Shown here: positions 2,731-19,290 of the stretch, piece by piece | Layout: every line of letters begins with the position of its first letter | Position numbering within the stretch: position 1 is the first letter of the stretch | Origin: Candidatus Altarchaeum sp. | Lineage (GTDB): Archaea > Altiarchaeota > Altiarchaeia > Altiarchaeales > Altiarchaeaceae | Direction of reading: 5' to 3' | NCBI GenBank assembly: GCA_018260615.1 | Contig: JAGWDQ010000079.1 | Location: 1-19,290 of the forward strand | DNA length: 19,290 nt | Made by a program: the position numbers and the translations under genes | Notes under the pieces: generated by a model | What the model saw: only the letters and a program-made list of their open reading frames with translations | Told to the model about the DNA's origin: nothing | Database searches by the model: none

Positions 2731-2769
2731 TTTTCTATAATTTTAAATTTTTTCAATAAATTTCTTTAA

Positions 2770-2863
2770 ATTTTCGTCAGACGCCTATTATTCATCACAA
2801 AATATATATCTTAATTATGTCTGTAAGGCATTTCAGAATAGGTCAATATCATCATCCGAAAAT
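2770..2863 (-). ncRNA. Box C/D sRNA (double kink-turn RNA), copy 1
   Basis: Minus strand reads ATTTTCG-g-ATGATGA (C, 2849-2855), 12 nt, CTGA (D', 2833-2836), 34 nt, GTGATGA (C', 2792-2798), 11 nt, CTGA (D, 2777-2780), CGAAAAT. This gives a perfect 7-bp terminal stem and the canonical 3-nt k-turn bulge. Confidence 0.78.
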
Positions 2864-2864
2864 G

Positions 2865-2896
2865 TAATTAAATTTAGAGATAATTAAATTTAGAGA
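2865..2896. repeat. Exact 16-bp tandem duplication TAATTAAATTTAGAGA x2, just upstream of the C/D RNA (also at 7107-7138)
   Basis: Read directly from the sequence. Confidence 0.9.
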
Positions 2897-3166
2897 ATGA
2901 AATTTTTAGAAGTGTGTTTTAACACTTTGAAATTTTTAAAATTTGTCCGAACATATTTGCGTTGATTTTTAAAGATCATCTAAGAATTGAATATGTTTAT
3001 CTTACATTCCGCACATCCAATAAAATTTTTTAATTTAATCATGGAGAAAATCACCTTACCTTCGTTCAGAGATTTACTCTGTTAGTTCGTAAATAGTATT
3101 AATGAATTTAGTATGCTTAAAAGGGATGATGATATTTTGTAATCAAAAAGTTATTTTATTTATTTT

Positions 3167-3217
3167 TATGCAATTATAATTATTTTATGCAATTATAATT
3201 ATTTTTATAATTGCATA
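3167..3217. promoter_or_regulatory. Operator-like triple site TATGCAATTATAA: direct copies at 3167-3179 and 3186-3198, inverted copy at 3205-3217
   Basis: Three exact 13-mers; the last two form a palindrome with a 6-nt spacer, upstream of the HD operon. The regulatory role is inferred. Confidence 0.45.
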
Positions 3218-3245
3218 CTATCTTTGCTCTCATTTAAAATCTTAC

Positions 3246-3326
3246 AGAGGGCTGTCTAATAATTCAATTTTCACGCATAATTTACTCTCAAAATAGGGGC
3301 AAAAAACTAATTGTTGGGCATCCTCT
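3246..3326. mobile_element. 81-bp MITE-like element with imperfect terminal inverted repeats
   Basis: Left end AGAGGGCTGTCTAATAATT vs reverse complement of right end AGAGG-ATGCCCAACAATT (14/19). No target-site duplication seen. Confidence 0.4.
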
Positions 3327-3459
3327 TCGGATTTTTAAAATGCAAAAATCAAAATATCGGGGAAAAATAAAATTTTTAATTTGAAAGTGCGGAATGTAGA
3401 TCATATTACTAAAAAATTAATTAATCAAAAAAAATAAAAGTGGTTTGATTTAATCTAAG

Positions 3460-4731
3460 ATGTTTAAACCTATTCGTGATCCAATTTGGGGGGATATAAA
3501 TCTTCAAGATGGTGTCAAAAAGATAATTGACACCAGATCCATACAAAGATTAAGACATATTCGGCAGGAAGGATTTACATTTCTATCTGTTCCATCAGCA
3601 AACCACACAAGATTTGAACATATTCTGGGCACTTTTCATTTGCTACATTGTTGGAGGGAGTCAAGAGAAGAAATAACTGATTTAGACCAATTGGCACTTT
3701 TGCATCACATAGATGATACACCTTTTACTTACGCCACTCGTGAAATAATAGAAATGATCCAGAATGAAACTTGGAAGGGAGATGCAGAAAAAAGAAAGCA
3801 ATTTATTAAAGGACTGATCAGTACGGAAATATCCGATAACAATAAACGTAGCGAACTTACCGACAGTATTATCAAGTTTGGAGGAAGAGAACTCGAAGTT
3901 AACATATTATTTGCTGCAAATAATATAGATACGATATGTAGAAATGCATATTATCTTGGATTAGGGCGACCCACAGTAATTGATGCAATAACAAAAATTA
4001 AACCTAAAAAGGAAGATAGGATAACTTTTGATAAAAATATCTTTACGTCTGTCATTTTAGAAGAACTAAAAAATGAGGCATTAACAAATATAGTGGCACA
4101 TATCTCCATGAGTAACAGCAGAATGTTTGCGAGGATAGTTACACGACTTTTATACTTTCTTTACAAGGATGAGATACAATTAGATATGCCATTGAACGCC
4201 CTTTTAAAAGATGTTGTGACCGATACAGAAAAATTTTTAGAGTTTAATGATGATTCTTTGTTATATGTATTAGATAAGTTAAAAGAAAGAGGAGAAGTAA
4301 GTAAAGAAATAAATGAGTACTTAGATATCTATTCCGGAAAGATAAAGTACCCACAACCCCCTCTTGAATATGATATTTCTAATATCCATCTTAACAGCGA
4401 TGATTATACTAATAAAAAATATGATCAGATGATGTTTCAAAATAAAATAGGAAACATGAATATGGAGAAGCAAATTAATCTCGAGAGGGACATACGGGAT
4501 CAATATTCTTTGAAACATCCTGTAATAATTGATATACCTTACAAATCTATAAAATCAAGATTCTTGTCATGTTTGGCTTTGAATTACGGGGAGGGGAGCG
4601 ATATAAAACTCTCCCCATCCGACAGCATTCCTGAAAGTACCAAAAAGATAAGAATTTTTTTACACAAGGACGACTACAACAAAATCAATAAGGACAAACT
4701 TTTTAAATTAATAAAATCAAAAATTGAATGA
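3460..4731 (+). CDS. SAMHD1/YwfO-like HD-domain protein, catalytically degenerate (pseudoenzyme)
   Basis: RDPIWGDI, IDTRSIQRLRHIRQ and HTRFEH are present. The HD motif reads LLHHIDDTPFTY instead of LLHDIGHGPFSH, and AANNIDTICRN replaces DxDxxDYxxRD. Confidence 0.85.
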   Translation: MFKPIRDPIWGDINLQDGVKKIIDTRSIQRLRHIRQEGFTFLSVPSANHTRFEHILGTFHLLHCWRESREEITDLDQLALLHHIDDTPFTYATREIIEMIQNETWKGDAEKRKQFIKGLISTEISDNNKRSELTDSIIKFGGRELEVNILFAANNIDTICRNAYYLGLGRPTVIDAITKIKPKKEDRITFDKNIFTSVILEELKNEALTNIVAHISMSNSRMFARIVTRLLYFLYKDEIQLDMPLNALLKDVVTDTEKFLEFNDDSLLYVLDKLKERGEVSKEINEYLDIYSGKIKYPQPPLEYDISNIHLNSDDYTNKKYDQMMFQNKIGNMNMEKQINLERDIRDQYSLKHPVIIDIPYKSIKSRFLSCLALNYGEGSDIKLSPSDSIPESTKKIRIFLHKDDYNKINKDKLFKLIKSKIE

Positions 4732-4743
4732 AAAATAAATAAA

Positions 4744-5157
4744 ATGGCAGCAAGAGAATTGGCATACATGTTGGGCAAAATGTTTAACGAGGAAAATCAG
4801 AACAAAGGAATTGTACATGACCTTGCAGTAAATTGGTGTGTATTCAAATGTCAAGAGAATGGGGCTATAAAAGATTATAAAAGATCTCTGTTAACTATTA
4901 ATGGACCAATAAATGAAGATGTGTTTTTTGATATTTCGCTTTTGCAAGATACTGGAATTATCGAGGTTAAAGGAAGATATGTGAAAGGAAATGGTATAGA
5001 TTGGCAGATGTTTATCAAAAGGATAGAAAAAGATGGATCGAAAGAGGAATTAGAAAAGATAAAAACTTCTGTAAATGACCTGAAAGCCGAAGTAGAAGAT
5101 TTCAAAGATGGAGAAAAATTGCTAAAAGGATGGATGGGATTAATGAAGAGAAAATAA
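4744..5157 (+). CDS. Small protein, probable divergent YwgA / Panacea (DUF4065, SocA-like) winged-helix family
   Basis: 137 aa, 12 nt after the HD1 stop. NGPINEDVFFDISLLQDTGII resembles the YGPYSxEL...L...G.(I/L) signature, and YwgA is known to sit next to the HD protein YwfO in Bacillus. The ORF itself is solid; the family call is moderate. Confidence 0.6.
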   Translation: MAARELAYMLGKMFNEENQNKGIVHDLAVNWCVFKCQENGAIKDYKRSLLTINGPINEDVFFDISLLQDTGIIEVKGRYVKGNGIDWQMFIKRIEKDGSKEELEKIKTSVNDLKAEVEDFKDGEKLLKGWMGLMKRK

Positions 5158-6746
5158 GACCTAATAGTACAAACATAAAAATTATAGGTATGACAATCTC
5201 TGATATTCTTGGGGACCCTGTATTGGGGGGAATAGAAATTGATAAAGATGAAAAAGGTTTAATTGAGTTGCCTGAAATGTATAGGCTCAGGCACATCAAA
5301 CAGAACAGTTTTTTATATTTAGTTTATCCTGGAGCATTACATACGCGATTTGAACATTCACTTGGTGTTTTTTATATAGCATCAAAGATATTTGATAGAG
5401 TAACAGAAGATGAACATTATAAAGGAATAAAAAATAAAACAGAGTGGAGAAAACGATTAAGAATTGCTGCGTTGTTACACGATATTGGTCATGGTCCATT
5501 AGCACATTTGTATGAAACTATGTTGGAACGCAATGGAATAACTGTAGAAGAGTTATTCAAGAATATTTTAATGGATAAAAAAATCAAACCGCCAAAAAAT
5601 AAAAAAATACATGAGGCCTTAACATATTATAAAATTCTAACATCAAAGTATATACGAGAATATATTGCCGATGTTTTCGACAAAGATCAGGAAAATGAAC
5701 TGAACAAAGAAGTTGAACGAATTGCACATTTATCGATAGGCGATTCTTCTTATGAGACGAAAGATACGGATTTTTGTTTTGCTTACGAAATTATAGCAAG
5801 TGAGTTTGATGCAGATAGAATAGAATATCTTGTAAGGGATTCATATTTTACGGGCGCAAAGTATGGAACATTAGATTATGAAAGATTAGTAAATTCAGGG
5901 TTTGCTATAAGAAAGGTTGGAAAAGACAAAGATTCTATGAGGAAGTTATGTATAGACGAAGAGAAGGGATTGACTCCTGCGGAATCTATAGTGGTGGCAA
6001 GAGCACAAATGTATCCCTATGTGTATCTTCATTCAACTGCAAGAGCAATTACAGCTATGTTTGTTAGAGCGTTTGATAGGATTTACGAAAATTACAAAAA
6101 TGAGGAAGATAAAAAAAATTTTATAAAAAAGACATTGGAAATGAAAGATTATGAATTTATATACGAAATGAAAGATAAAGATGAAACAGGACTCATACAA
6201 AACATTATGGACCGAAAACTTCATAAAAAGATAAAGATTGAGGGATGGAAATATAAATATGTGAAATGGCAAGAATTACATCCCGAGGTTAGAGAAGTTA
6301 TAGAGAACATAGCAAATAGAAAGGATAAATACAATATTTTAAAAAAATGTGAATACAAACTTGAAGAAGAACTTAAAAACAACATAGGCAAAGATATTAA
6401 AAATGAAAAGTATGGGAAGTATCCAGTAATTATAGATATACCTTCATTCCCTCGTTTGGAGGAATTAAAAGCTAAAGTTAAGAGCAATAATGAAACAAGA
6501 TCATTAGAAGATGTGTCAAAGATAGCGTGGATTTCGAAAGATGTGATGAGATCTAACTGGAAAATGTTTTTATTTGTTGATCCGTCTTTAAAAGAGATGA
6601 TAGGAGGAAACTCAGAGGATGCAAAAAAGCTACGGAATAAAATAGAGGAATATGTTAAAAACTTTTTTTCATTTGAAGGATATGGAGAGGCGGCAACTGT
6701 GATGAGGGAGGCAATAAAAGAGGCAGAAAAGAAAATGAAGAACTAA
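5130..6746 (+). CDS. SAMHD1/YwfO-like HD-domain dNTP triphosphohydrolase, catalytic residues intact (start may be ATG 5190)
   Basis: RLRHIKQ, YPGALHTRFEHSLGV (H76), LLHDIGHGPLAH (H117, D118, H121, H126), HE (H161), DADRIEYLVRDSYFTG (D229, Y233, D237). Confidence 0.9.
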   Translation: MDGINEEKIRPNSTNIKIIGMTISDILGDPVLGGIEIDKDEKGLIELPEMYRLRHIKQNSFLYLVYPGALHTRFEHSLGVFYIASKIFDRVTEDEHYKGIKNKTEWRKRLRIAALLHDIGHGPLAHLYETMLERNGITVEELFKNILMDKKIKPPKNKKIHEALTYYKILTSKYIREYIADVFDKDQENELNKEVERIAHLSIGDSSYETKDTDFCFAYEIIASEFDADRIEYLVRDSYFTGAKYGTLDYERLVNSGFAIRKVGKDKDSMRKLCIDEEKGLTPAESIVVARAQMYPYVYLHSTARAITAMFVRAFDRIYENYKNEEDKKNFIKKTLEMKDYEFIYEMKDKDETGLIQNIMDRKLHKKIKIEGWKYKYVKWQELHPEVREVIENIANRKDKYNILKKCEYKLEEELKNNIGKDIKNEKYGKYPVIIDIPSFPRLEELKAKVKSNNETRSLEDVSKIAWISKDVMRSNWKMFLFVDPSLKEMIGGNSEDAKKLRNKIEEYVKNFFSFEGYGEAATVMREAIKEAEKKMKN

Positions 6747-6989
6747 AGAAAATCAGAGAATAAATAATTCTGTATTTAATTAAAAGGCAACCATTAAAGA
6801 CATAAAAAATTTGAGAAATTTACTAAAAAATCAGGTTTTGCGATTTAATTTTTAGAATCATGTTTTTGAATCTGTGATAATAGCAACTTTCAAAATAACC
6901 CCATTGCCGTTTAGAGAGTTTGAAATAGCAATCTCACGACATTAAAAATAAGAGCCATTTGGTTTTTCCTTTTTTGTGCATTTCTTTCT

Positions 6990-7159
6990 TTTTTTCAATA
7001 AATTTCTTTAAATTTTCGTCAGACGCCTATTTTTCATCACAAAATATATATCTTAATTATGTCTGTAAGGCATTTCAGAATAGGTCAATATCATCATCCG
7101 AAAATGTAATTAAATTTAGAGATAATTAAATTTAGAGAATGAAATTTTTAGAAGTGTGT
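6990..7159. repeat. 170-bp direct repeat, copy 2 (right island boundary)
   Basis: 169/170 identical to 2748-2917. Confidence 0.97.
7012..7105 (-). ncRNA. Box C/D sRNA, copy 2
   Basis: C 7091-7097, D' 7075-7078, C' 7034-7040, D 7019-7022, same 7-bp terminal stem. Differs from copy 1 only at position 2 of the D guide. Confidence 0.75.
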
Positions 7160-7162
7160 CTT

Positions 7163-7521
7163 AAAGATTTCTAAATCACCTCGCTGTCACCTCACTTACG
7201 CTCACTTCGTTCGTGTATTTTAAATACTCTTCGTATTTAAAATCGTTCGGAGATTTAAAATTTCTATGAGAAATTTAAAATCGTTCGGAGATTTAAAAAT
7301 TTGTGAAATTTTTAAATAACCTCGCTGTCGCAAAAATCTACAAGATTTTTGGGATATTCAAAAATTACCTCGCTGTCGCTCGGAGATTTTCAAATCTCTA
7401 CGATTTGAAAATGCTTGAAGCATTTTTGATATTGCTCGGATATTTCAAAATCCTTTGAAGATTTCTAAATCACCTCGCTCTTGCTCGGACATTTCAAAAT
7501 CTTTGAGATTTTTAAATAACC
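7163..7521. repeat. Array of short palindromes interleaved with a CCTCGCTGTCGCTCGG-type motif (REP/BIME-like)
   Basis: Perfect stems at 7217-7243, 7258-7276, 7291-7317, 7331-7351, 7386-7412, 7408-7426 and 7496-7512. CCTCGCTGTC occurs at 7179, 7320 and 7368, with a variant at 7473. Exact 26-bp repeat at 7235-7260 and 7273-7298. Confidence 0.85.
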
Positions 7522-7546
7522 CCATAATTCTATCCCATTATTTAAA

Positions 7547-8389
7547 ATGGGGGATAAATTTTTATTTGCCAATTCGGAAAAAGAAGACGCAGATGTATGT
7601 ATATTCGGAATGCCGTTTGATTCAACAACCAGTTTTAAACCCGGAACACGACTTGGGCCAAGAGCAATAAGAGACGCATCGTACAATCTGGAATTTTACA
7701 GCATGGCACTTGAAAGAAACATCAGGGATATTAAAATTTTTGATGCTGGAGATACTGGCTTTTATACAAATCCGCAGCACGCCATCTCCGAAATTTCCGA
7801 ACAGACAAGAGAGTTATTAAAATCGGATAAATTTATAGTCGGACTTGGCGGAGAGCATACTGTAAGTTATGGAATTGCACATGCAATGAAAGAAATTTAC
7901 AAAGATGTTGCAGTAATACAGTTTGATGCTCATGCCGATTTAAGAACTGTCTATGATTTTGAAAAATTTTCCCACGCGTGCGTTATGAATTTAATCGGAA
8001 ATGATATTGGCTTTGAAAATATATACCAGTTCGGGATAAGGTCAGGGGAAGAAGAAGAACTGAAATTTGCAGAAAAGACAAATTTTTTTCCGCTTCATAA
8101 ATACGACACGGCCCAGATTTTAGAAATTTTAGACGAATTGAACATAGACAAAAAGGTTTATCTGACGATTGACATAGATGTGCTTGACCCCGCTTATGCA
8201 CCGGGCGTCGGAACACCTGAACCGGGAGGAATAACTTCAAACGAGATGTTTAAAATTTTAAATTCACTGAAAAAATTTGATATTGTTGGCTTTGATGTTG
8301 TTGAGGTAAATCCGATGGTTGATATGAGCGGAATTACAGCAATGCTCGCTGCAAAGATTATCAGAGAAGGTATCTTAAATTTCAGATGA
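7547..8389 (+). CDS. speB: Agmatinase (ureohydrolase family)
   Basis: PFDSTTSFKPGTRLGP, GGEH, DAHAD, SHA, GIRS, DIDVLDP, PGVGTPEPGG, DVVEVNP. Confidence 0.93.
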   Translation: MGDKFLFANSEKEDADVCIFGMPFDSTTSFKPGTRLGPRAIRDASYNLEFYSMALERNIRDIKIFDAGDTGFYTNPQHAISEISEQTRELLKSDKFIVGLGGEHTVSYGIAHAMKEIYKDVAVIQFDAHADLRTVYDFEKFSHACVMNLIGNDIGFENIYQFGIRSGEEEELKFAEKTNFFPLHKYDTAQILEILDELNIDKKVYLTIDIDVLDPAYAPGVGTPEPGGITSNEMFKILNSLKKFDIVGFDVVEVNPMVDMSGITAMLAAKIIREGILNFR

Positions 8390-8410
8390 AATAAATTAAA
8401 TTTTTTTAGG

Positions 8411-8707
8411 ATGGAAATTTCCAAATTTCAGAGGCATATAAAGGAAATTTATTTTGACAATGATTCAAAGCGGGGAAAGGAAAAAACATTTATCTGGCTG
8501 ATAGAAGAAATCGGAGAATTAGCAGAAGAAATCAGAAAGAGTGATAAGAAAAACGAAGCAATGGAGGCGGAATTTGCAGATGTGTTTGCATGGTTGTGCT
8601 CGGAGGCAAATTTATACGGGATTGATATTGAAAAGTGTGTAATAAACAAGTATGGAAATGGCTGCCCGAAATGCGGGAAAAATCCGTGTAAATGTAATAT
8701 GGAGTGA
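8411..8707 (+). CDS. MazG-like nucleotide pyrophosphohydrolase, archaeal type with C-terminal CxxC-x4-CxC
   Basis: WLIEEIGELAEEIRK and EAEFADVFAWL match the EExxE...ExxD motif; C-terminus CPKCGKNPCKC. Confidence 0.85.
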   Translation: MEISKFQRHIKEIYFDNDSKRGKEKTFIWLIEEIGELAEEIRKSDKKNEAMEAEFADVFAWLCSEANLYGIDIEKCVINKYGNGCPKCGKNPCKCNME

Positions 8708-8767: not shown

Positions 8768-8884
8768 CTCACACGGAGACACAAGGACACAAAGGAGAAA
8801 TATACTGAAAATTCTTTGAGAATTTTCAATCTTTAAAAATCTGCTGATTTTTAAATACTCTCTGACTTTGTGGCTTTGTGTGAG
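8768..8884. repeat. 117-bp fold-back element: imperfect outer arms enclosing two perfect 10-bp hairpins
   Basis: Arms CTCACACGGAGACACAAGGACA vs reverse complement CTCACACAAAGCCACAAAGTCA (17/22; 20/22 allowing G-U on the + strand). Inner hairpins at 8806-8828 and 8832-8855. Confidence 0.75.
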
Positions 8885-8890
8885 CATTTT

Positions 8891-8916
8891 TTAAAAAGCA
8901 CCAACTCTATTGTAAA
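8891..8916. repeat. Solo copy of the MITE end found at 18788-18813
   Basis: TTAAAAAGCACCAACTCTATTGTAAA vs TTAAAAAGCAACAACTCTATTATAAA, 24/26 identical. Confidence 0.75.
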
Positions 8917-8998
8917 CAAATTAAAATTTAATTCGCAACTACGCCAATGTAATAAAGTTATTATTTTCAATTACTTTTCTGACTTTCTTATTATCTTC

Positions 8999-9097
8999 TT
9001 ATATCCCAAATGCGACCATTAAAAACCACATTACAAGTATTACCCACACAACAGTTATAACTCCTCCAACTGTAAGAGATACAAGGTCCTCATCCAT
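8999..9097 (-). CDS. Unannotated 32-aa single-pass membrane protein MDEDLVSLTVGGVITVVWVILVMWFLMVAFGI
   Basis: Hand-translated. ATG at 9097 preceded by AAA, as in rpoA', rpoB and carB; TAA at 8999-9001. Acidic N-terminus followed by an uncharged hydrophobic stretch of about 28 aa; co-oriented 81 nt after nusA. Confidence 0.6.
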   Translation of the reverse strand: MDEDLVSLTVGGVITVVWVILVMWFLMVAFGI

Positions 9098-9178
9098 TTT
9101 AAGATAAATTTATTGTTTGTTAAATTTATGTTTTTTATGTTTGTTAAATTTTAAATATTCAGGCATAAGCGAACTTAT

Positions 9179-19088: not shown

Positions 19089-19290
19089 TCAATTATCGCC
19101 CCCCCAAAATTCCATCGGATTTAATCGTTCTGCGAGCTCTATCGCATGCTGTAATTTGTGAGCCGAGGAAGAATACAAGGTGAATAACGATTCATTGCTC
19201 CTTACAAAGTCCCCGACCGAAATTTTTAAATATATCCCTGCTTTTTTATCATAAGGCGCTCCCGCTGCTCTCGCAATCTGGGAAATTTTC
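19089..19290 (-). CDS. deoA: AMP phosphorylase (thymidine/pyrimidine-nucleoside phosphorylase family), 3' end only; runs off the window edge
   Basis: Hand-translated from 19289: KISQIARAAGAPYDKKAGIYLKISVGDFVRSNESLFTLYSSSAHKLQHAIELAERLNPMEFWGGDN*. IARAAGAPxDKxAGIYL is typical of the archaeal AMP phosphorylase C-domain. Confidence 0.82.
   Translation of the reverse strand, partial: KISQIARAAGAPYDKKAGIYLKISVGDFVRSNESLFTLYSSSAHKLQHAIELAERLNPMEFWGGDN

Follow-up and report, generated by a model that had tools for sequence, protein, structure and literature searches.

The window analysed here, the first 19,290 nt of a 50.9-kb scaffold (C79; contig JAGWDQ010000079.1) from the genome of Altiarchaeum, an uncultivated archaeon of groundwater, contains a 4,067-bp cassette that is enclosed by two near-identical copies of a 175-nt block in the intergenic region of the divergent genes carB and speB. 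Each copy of the block bears a complete gene for a box C/D small RNA (sRNA). The genome (G000) is a metagenome bin of 148 contigs, with a size of ~2.23 Mb and a completeness of 87%. We consider it probable that the locus was formed by recombinase-free insertion of a foreign cassette, which duplicated ~170–175 bp of its target (an 'insertion with long target duplication') and which took the sRNA gene along as a passenger.

Repeat pair and empty site in relatives

The window has a single family of long direct repeats, whose two copies (R1 and R2, Table 1) start 4242 nt apart. Base-by-base comparison over 170 nt reveals one mismatch, A at position 2791 versus T at position 7033. When the comparison is extended to 175 nt, a second mismatch (2918/7160) is followed by four further shared bases, and 173 of the 175 positions are identical. 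Each copy consists of the 94-nt C/D RNA, 22 nt on the 3´ side of the RNA and 54–59 nt on its 5´ side. A first-pass annotation of the same DNA had described 170-bp repeats with one mismatch at a distance of 4242 bp, each with a complete C/D RNA plus about 54 nt upstream and 22 nt downstream, and both the repeat search and the direct comparison confirm this description. One end of the duplicated block is 18 nt upstream of the carB start codon, the other 59 nt upstream of the sRNA, and the block contains the sRNA gene, the sRNA promoter and most of the carB upstream region. Its extent therefore indicates that more than the RNA gene was duplicated, namely the regulatory DNA common to two divergent genes. 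A search of the whole genome (2.2 Mb) with the 175-mer returned no copies beyond R1 and R2. Confinement to these two sites shows that the block is neither a chance repeat nor a dispersed one, the latter being an alternative that the annotation had raised.

All three same-genus genomes compared (G001, G002 and G003) have exactly one copy of the block, 89–94% identical, between speB and the N-terminal half of carB. The same context with one copy each is found on four metagenome contigs (CCXY01000163, CCXY01000145, Ga0210009_1002213 and Ga0210050_1000449), which were retrieved by a scan of metagenome contigs with the conserved core of the sRNA as the query. None of the sequence of the interior (2923–6989) is present at the carB/speB locus in any of these seven related Altiarchaeum sequences, and the alignment with G002 is unbroken from speB via the repeat into carB. 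Since the relatives have a single copy without the interior, the insert is derived and the target block has been duplicated. The empty site is clean, and the cassette is a real insertion relative to a site that is still seen in relatives. The annotation had proposed that removal of one repeat together with the interior gives a simple carB–sRNA–speB order and that the empty site might be found in related genomes. The first is borne out by the seven one-copy sequences without the interior, the second by the three genomes and four metagenome contigs. The opposite outcome, in which all relatives carry the cassette without repeats, is contradicted by the seven relatives that lack the cassette.

Table 1. 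Features of the carB–speB region, in window coordinates, with the basis of each assignment.
Feature	Position	Strand	Basis
XerA-type tyrosine recombinase, 342 aa, outside the repeats	92–1120	−	NCBIfam NF040815, 237.9 bits (cut-off 220)
carB, N-terminal half, 467 aa; ancestral left flank	1327–2730	−	Pfam CPSase_L_D1/D2/D3; TIGR01369 positions 4–471 of 1052
R1, repeat copy 1; duplicated target beside carB	2748–2922		89–94% identical to the single copy of relatives
Box C/D sRNA copy 1, 94 nt	2770–2863	−	C, D´, C´ and D boxes; 6-bp terminal stem TTTTCG/CGAAAA; D guide AATAATAGGCGT
Non-coding leader, 537 nt	2923–3459		Low-copy element with 34-nt inverted repeats (3003–3036/3365–3398); palindromic AT-rich tandem (3186–3217)
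HD1, 423 aa, divergent paralogue of HD2	3460–4731	+	BLASTP against HD2, 23% identity over the full length, E 7e-15
Open reading frame (ORF) of 137 aa between the HD genes	4744–5157	+	No Pfam, NCBIfam or PADLOC match
HD2, 538 aa, SAMHD1-like HD-domain phosphohydrolase	5130–6746	+	Pfam HD 35.3 bits (cut-off 22); HD_assoc_2 98.5 bits (cut-off 23.1)
Non-coding tail	6747–6989		Motif common to three other loci (6868–6960); 18-nt carB-start-like remnant (6958–6975)
R2, repeat copy 2; duplicated target beside speB	6990–7164		Repeat comparison
Box C/D sRNA copy 2	7012–7105	−	Identical to copy 1 except for one base in the D guide AAAAATAGGCGT
Array of hairpin units alternating with CACCTCGCTGTCGC-like motifs	7165–7546		542 BLAST matches in the genome
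speB (agmatinase); ancestral right flank	7547–8389	+	Pfam Arginase; TIGR01230, 310 bits

Contents of the cassette, the repeats and the flanks

The insert is made up of HD1, a small ORF, HD2 and non-coding ends. Its guanine-plus-cytosine (GC) content of 0.25–0.35 is near the genome mean of 0.33 and lower than that of the flanking core genes. Searches of Pfam, NCBIfam and PADLOC with the three ORFs of the insert gave no match to an integrase, a transposase or a Rep protein. The repeat search detected no inverted repeat that links the two ends of the insert (2923.. with ..6989), and the duplication is 175 nt long; the structure is not that of a transposon or of a miniature inverted-repeat transposable element (MITE).

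HD2 matches the sequences of 2hek, 2q14, EF1143 (2o6i) and SAMHD1 among the structures in the PDB, and its H..HD..D residues are invariant in the alignment, consistent with a putative deoxynucleoside triphosphate (dNTP) triphosphohydrolase. HD1 shares the N-terminal signature RLRHI.Q...HTRFEH with HD2, has a degenerate metal motif (LHHIDD instead of LHDIGH) and matches no Pfam or other family. The nearest homologues of HD2 in the databases are 45–47% identical. HD1 has one relative at E 7.5e-55 (39% identity; P0123), and its other 13 matches (E <= 1e-5) are weak, at E 9e-13 or worse. The genomes of 60 relatives contain no close relative of HD2, only housekeeping HD proteins of ~400 aa. Among species-representative genomes, a scan with HD2 alone gave no confirmed relative, and a scan with the alignment gave only HD proteins of 23–35% identity, mostly of the ~400-aa housekeeping types. 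Two scans of viral contigs identified no relative of either protein. Proteins identical to HD1 and HD2 are also recorded on a 95,414-bp contig of another record, and the cassette is thus embedded in long chromosomal sequence there as well. The cargo probably serves in defence or regulation as a nucleotide-depleting module.

The leader carries an element bounded by 34-nt inverted repeats (TACATTCCGCACATCC...), which measures 396 nt in the cassette (3003–3398) and ~145 nt at C60:23581–23724. The same inverted-repeat ends occur at C131:5394–5434 and C114:9625–9658 and twice in G002 (C34 and C189). Their recurrence in this genome and in G002 indicates that the insert has resided in an Altiarchaeum-type genome. 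No clear target duplication was seen for this element. A plasmid origin of the cassette, considered on account of the inverted repeats and the AT-rich tandem of the leader, was rejected; there is no Rep gene, and the element is a low-copy chromosomal one in the lineage. The tail, 3´ of HD2, contains a motif on the forward strand (6868–6960) that consists of AATCYGTGAT, a stretch of 30–55 nt, AGCAAYCTCAC and then ATTAAAAATAAGAG. The motif is also found at C53:54563–54620, C68:26276–26312 and C81:32071–32119 (−), and may correspond to a small RNA or a terminator-associated element.

The sRNA is composed of GGATGATGA, a 12-nt guide, CTGA, GTGATGA, a second 12-nt guide (AATAATAGGCGT) and CTGA, closed by the TTTTCG/CGAAAA stem, with a D´-C´ linker that is unusually long (34 nt). 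The sole difference between the two copies is located in the D guide, ten nt from box D. In an alignment of eight sequences, the boxes and the stem are invariant and the D´ guide and most of the D´-C´ linker are invariant or nearly so, while the D guide differs among lineages. Matches to Rfam remain below threshold (snoR38, 26.3 bits with a cut-off of 45; sR11, 20.4 bits with a cut-off of 39), and no curated Rfam family scores above its cut-off. The D´ guide can pair with positions 1130–1141 of the 16S rRNA of the same genome at 12 of 12 positions (2 G-U), for which the rough chance expectation in the rRNAs is ~0.04, and the fifth-position rule would place the modification at G1134. No convincing rRNA or tRNA target was found for the D guide. 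The RNA is accepted as a genuine, conserved C/D sRNA.

On the left side of the locus, the N-terminal half of carB ends in the oligomerisation domain; it is collinear in all relatives and split in the same way there. XerA comes after this half of carB both here and in G002, and the split of carB therefore seems to be the normal state in the genus. The orthologue of XerA adjoins carB at the same place in G002, which is a genome without the insert. The first catalytic arginine is replaced by glycine in the present protein (AGLGVSE, versus AGLRVSE in G002), so that this XerA lacks the first catalytic arginine, with an ORF that is otherwise intact. An integron-like cassette beside XerA, to which an 'integron integrase' match had pointed, was set aside: the protein scores above the cut-off of the XerA model and below that of the integron integrase, and carB intervenes. 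On the right side, the speB product and the agmatinase of Candidatus Altiarchaeum hamiconexum share 91% identity, which assigns the organism to a species of Altiarchaeum, and speB on a 94,153-bp contig of another strain is 98% identical.

The array of hairpins and CACCTCGCTGTCGC-like motifs abuts R2 and lies outside the duplication, with units that begin ~17 nt past the repeat boundary. At the corresponding position, G001, G002 and CCXY01000163 have no such array, and that of G003 is a different one. Candidatus A. hamiconexum is reported to exceed all other archaea in MITE density (PMC11602168), which fits a dispersed hairpin array beside R2. The spacer between carB and the sRNA is itself occupied in some relatives. 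G001 has an unrelated insert of ~270 nt in it (~8840–9128), CCXY01000163 has one of ~390 nt that is flanked by an imperfect direct repeat of 31 nt (7986–8440), and CCXY01000145 has two copies of a MITE with GTAACTATTCAG/CTGAATAGTTAC ends (5999–6450), which gives 188 BLAST matches in G000.

Origin of the arrangement

Further repeat pairs are present in the genome. A k-mer scan detected ~50 other intra-contig direct repeats of at least 100 nt, spaced 0.6–43 kb apart. When the genome was compared with itself by megablast, the 175-nt pair that the k-mer scan caught was not recovered, and the BLAST list of repeats is therefore incomplete. Several of the other pairs were compared with the three congeneric genomes, and two of them are clear cargo inserts with an empty site in relatives. 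On the same scaffold, 12 kb away, a 208-nt duplication (207/208; C79:19391–19598/22558–22765) of the 3´ end of a protein gene surrounds a gene for 862 aa. This cargo has no Pfam match; contig C47 of G001 is collinear without it, and copies of 80% identity are located on other contigs of G001 and G003. At C114:3672–3832/6493–6653, a 161-nt duplication of the end of a protein gene surrounds the gene of an 809-aa NACHT-TPR STAND NTPase, and the site is empty in G001, G002 and G003. The cargo at further candidate pairs includes an AbiEii toxin, a methyltransferase and large surface proteins. Given that other integrase-free inserts with long target duplications exist in this genome, the sRNA in R1 and R2 is most likely a passenger.

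The left joint of the cassette is located at GTGTGT(T/C)TTAA and the right joint in a T6–7 run, both of which are short AT-rich matches. A foreign cassette would have entered the divergent carB/speB intergenic region of an Altiarchaeum chromosome, and its joints may have been made by illegitimate joining at the level of microhomology. For example, two offset breaks, on sister copies or on multiple copies of the chromosome, could have been bridged by a linear fragment, or replication could have switched its template and re-entered upstream. Either route would lead to duplications of arbitrary length, of which only those that keep the genes and promoters of the neighbours functional would persist. 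After the insertion, R1 would have stayed upstream of carB and R2 upstream of speB, and the sRNA gene would have been doubled. As the duplicated block carries the sRNA, its promoter and most of the carB upstream DNA, carB and speB each retain the upstream sequence native to them. With the repeats in place, host homologous recombination could remove the unit, multiply it or free it as a circle of 4,242 bp, which might enter an empty site again through the same homology. The annotation had likewise suggested that the cassette could excise or amplify by recombination between the repeats, and the repeats are indeed substrates for host recombination. Its proposal that the near-identity of the copies implies a recent event is plausible but not secure, since gene conversion between the copies gives the same picture.

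Several points weigh against an insertion with long target duplication. The class is descriptive, because its physical mechanism is not established even in bacteria, and microhomology is weak evidence in a genome of 33% GC. The integrated state is known from assemblies, and the data fit a first-time illegitimate insertion and the homologous re-insertion of a repeat-bearing circle alike and cannot separate the two. The 18 nt at 6958–6975, located 14 nt outside R2, match the carB start region (2717–2734) at 16 of 18 positions and in the same register, with ATG changed to AAG (p ~0.0035 against random genomic windows, in a T-rich region of low complexity). Similar short duplications are seen in the carB start region of other lineages. 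This carB-start-like remnant is suggestive only, but it would point to an older or longer duplication and does not fit a simple fresh duplication of 175 bp. If the remnant is real, the duplication once reached into carB, and the near-identity of the two copies would be due to gene conversion or selection, not to recency. Among the other repeat pairs, those on C16, C60 and C105 lack a clean empty site (the relatives are fragmented or rearranged), and the counterpart of the C129 pair in relatives is a larger gap, not a simple empty site. Finally, the spacer of ~30 nt that separates the carB start from the 3´ end of the sRNA holds different small inserts in several other lineages; an intergenic region this short may offer few positions that tolerate insertion, but these inserts leave some room for a local target preference.

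The same structure, with the cassette (X) between two copies of the block (R), is exactly what a single Campbell-type crossover would generate, in which a 4,242-bp circle already bearing R was crossed into the chromosomal R by host homologous recombination to give R-X-R. Such a circle could have been freed from an earlier R-X-R, with R, sRNA included, as the homology arm, as the annotation suggested. A stands beside carB and T beside the end of the insert, which fits a crossover in the 126-nt identical stretch to the right of this position, and both alleles are present in the genus (A in G001, G002 and CCXY; T in G003 and Ga0210009); the A/T difference is compatible with such a crossover as well as with a point mutation that arose later. 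The carB-start-like remnant outside R2 would then be old baggage of the element. However, the searches gave no circular form, no replication gene of a plasmid and no second copy, and, with one genome, the product is the same as that of an insertion with long target duplication. An earlier event must also have put R on the element, which makes the crossover a step of propagation, not of origin. On balance, we regard a Campbell-type integration as rather unlikely to account for the locus. Once the unit had formed, such crossovers would be a way for it to spread between conspecific cells, and the idea of a homology site in the annotation may hold for R as a whole.

Archaeal integrative elements with SSV-type or pNOB8-type integrases target tRNA genes, and the annotation interpreted the present locus by analogy as an element that had integrated at, and duplicated, a C/D sRNA gene. 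The insertion is real, its target is duplicated and the empty site exists in relatives, but the sRNA as the attachment (att) site is not supported, since the insert encodes no integrase and the block exceeds the sRNA. Site-specific integration at the sRNA could still have been catalysed in trans, by XerA or by an integrase encoded elsewhere, in which case the insert would be a non-autonomous or decayed element. In keeping with this, a structured small-RNA gene lies within the repeats, as tRNA genes do for archaeal integrative elements, the gene of a tyrosine recombinase is 1.6 kb away, and other lineages have inserts near the sRNA 3´ end. This XerA, however, is encoded outside the repeats, beyond carB, is conserved in the insert-free G002 and has glycine in place of its first catalytic arginine. 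As for the inserts in other lineages, one at least is a plain MITE that carries inverted repeats of its own. Outside this locus, the genome contains neither R nor the insert, so that an att core is not reused, and the other verified inserts duplicate the ends of protein genes over varying lengths. The annotation had also raised the question of whether other islands are bounded by C/D RNAs; a strict pattern search in this genome gave three other predicted C/D RNAs, none of which (0/3) lies in a repeat pair. We therefore consider site-specific integration in trans extremely unlikely, and the interpretation of the sRNA as an attachment site is most likely wrong.

An artefact of assembly, in which the chromosome has one R and X plus R belongs to a separate circle or to another strain and was threaded in at a repeat longer than k, is very unlikely. 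The two sides of a 100-N gap in the scaffold overlap by exactly 55 nt (19236–19290 versus C79:19391–19445), which suggests a de Bruijn assembly with k=55, in which the exact repeat of 126–131 nt was resolved by read pairs; the source of the genome, a metagenome bin of 148 contigs, also leaves space for such an error. On the other hand, the two copies of R have different bases at a position 44 nt from the left boundary, so that a single k-mer connects each allele with its flank; proteins identical to those of the cassette are found on the 95,414-bp contig of another record; and the bin contains no alternative contig with the empty site. Moreover, both X-R junctions must be in real reads for the assembly graph to contain them, and X is thus physically joined to R on both sides, whatever the topology. 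As a separate observation, the two scaffold pieces at the 100-N gap could be joined via the 55-nt overlap.

Comparison with known insertion modes

An insertion with long target duplication is a poorly understood kind of gene movement without a transposase or an integrase, documented mainly for the restriction–modification (RM) genes of naturally competent bacteria. An archaeal case with seven empty-site comparators, a non-RM cargo and an intergenic target would extend this mode of insertion, and a genome with many candidate sites, two of them verified, provides a set of junctions that could allow the mechanism to be deduced. The locus shows one way in which a guide-RNA gene can be duplicated, and also serves as a warning that an RNA gene inside flanking repeats is not always an att site. 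More tentatively, Altiarchaeum may possess a general recombinase-free route for the uptake of accessory cassettes with long, variable target duplications, which here doubled a working guide-RNA gene with its promoter. If so, new C/D sRNA paralogues would also arise from the very process by which defence genes are shuffled, and the two copies already differ in one guide base; each cassette would in addition obtain portable homology arms for excision and re-entry by host recombination. A literature search retrieved no description of such an insertion in Altiarchaeum.

The locus resembles several known systems in part. Like the integrative elements of archaea that target tRNA genes, it is an accessory island between direct repeats that bear the gene of a small structured RNA. 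Those elements encode an integrase and recur at the same att site in many genomes, neither of which is seen here, and the present locus differs from them in that a whole RNA gene with its promoter DNA was duplicated. As in homology-facilitated illegitimate recombination during natural transformation of Acinetobacter and Streptococcus pneumoniae, foreign DNA would have been acquired without a dedicated recombinase. That process uses one homologous joint and one microhomology joint and can leave local duplications or deletions, whereas neither joint of the cassette can be identified as homologous; we know of no demonstration of it in archaea. With regard to the cargo, HD2 is similar to the SAMHD1/EF1143-type dNTP triphosphohydrolases and anti-phage dGTPases in its HD and HD_assoc_2 domains and in its sequence match to structures of the SAMHD1 family. 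Unlike in those systems, a degenerate paralogue and a small ORF accompany HD2, and the matches of HD2 to the dGTPase defence models cover only ~60 residues and are far below the cut-off.

The closest counterparts are the insertions of bacterial RM systems. The mode of insertion is credited to Nobusato et al. (2000) in the citation given in PMC2853133. Furuta, Abe and Kobayashi (2010; PMC2853133) defined such loci as inserts of <20 kb without mobility genes, between direct repeats of >30 bp that align to a one-copy empty site. The repeats in their tables are 46–423 bp long and often span the start or stop of a gene, so that the target gene survives. Insertions of this kind were seen for all types of bacterial RM systems, and no archaeal case survived the screen (PMC2853133). 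The present locus agrees with that definition in repeat length, empty site, size, lack of mobility genes and low copy number, and departs from it in that no restriction or modification gene is carried. With its HD-domain cargo and without RM genes, it is therefore a variant of the insertion mode and not an RM element. It shares with the bacterial insertions the unique long repeats (175 bp here), the single-copy empty site, the lack of a mobility gene, the neighbours that are left intact, an accessory, defence-like cargo and repeats that could later mediate amplification or loss. In contrast, its host is an archaeon, its cargo is a pair of SAMHD1-like HD-domain genes instead of R and M genes, and the target, instead of the start or stop of a protein gene, is regulatory intergenic DNA that includes the gene of a non-coding RNA. 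The locus is a well-polarised example with an unusual cargo and target, in which a guide-RNA gene was duplicated as a side effect; the process is known from bacteria, and the archaeal host, the intergenic target and the non-RM cargo set the locus apart.

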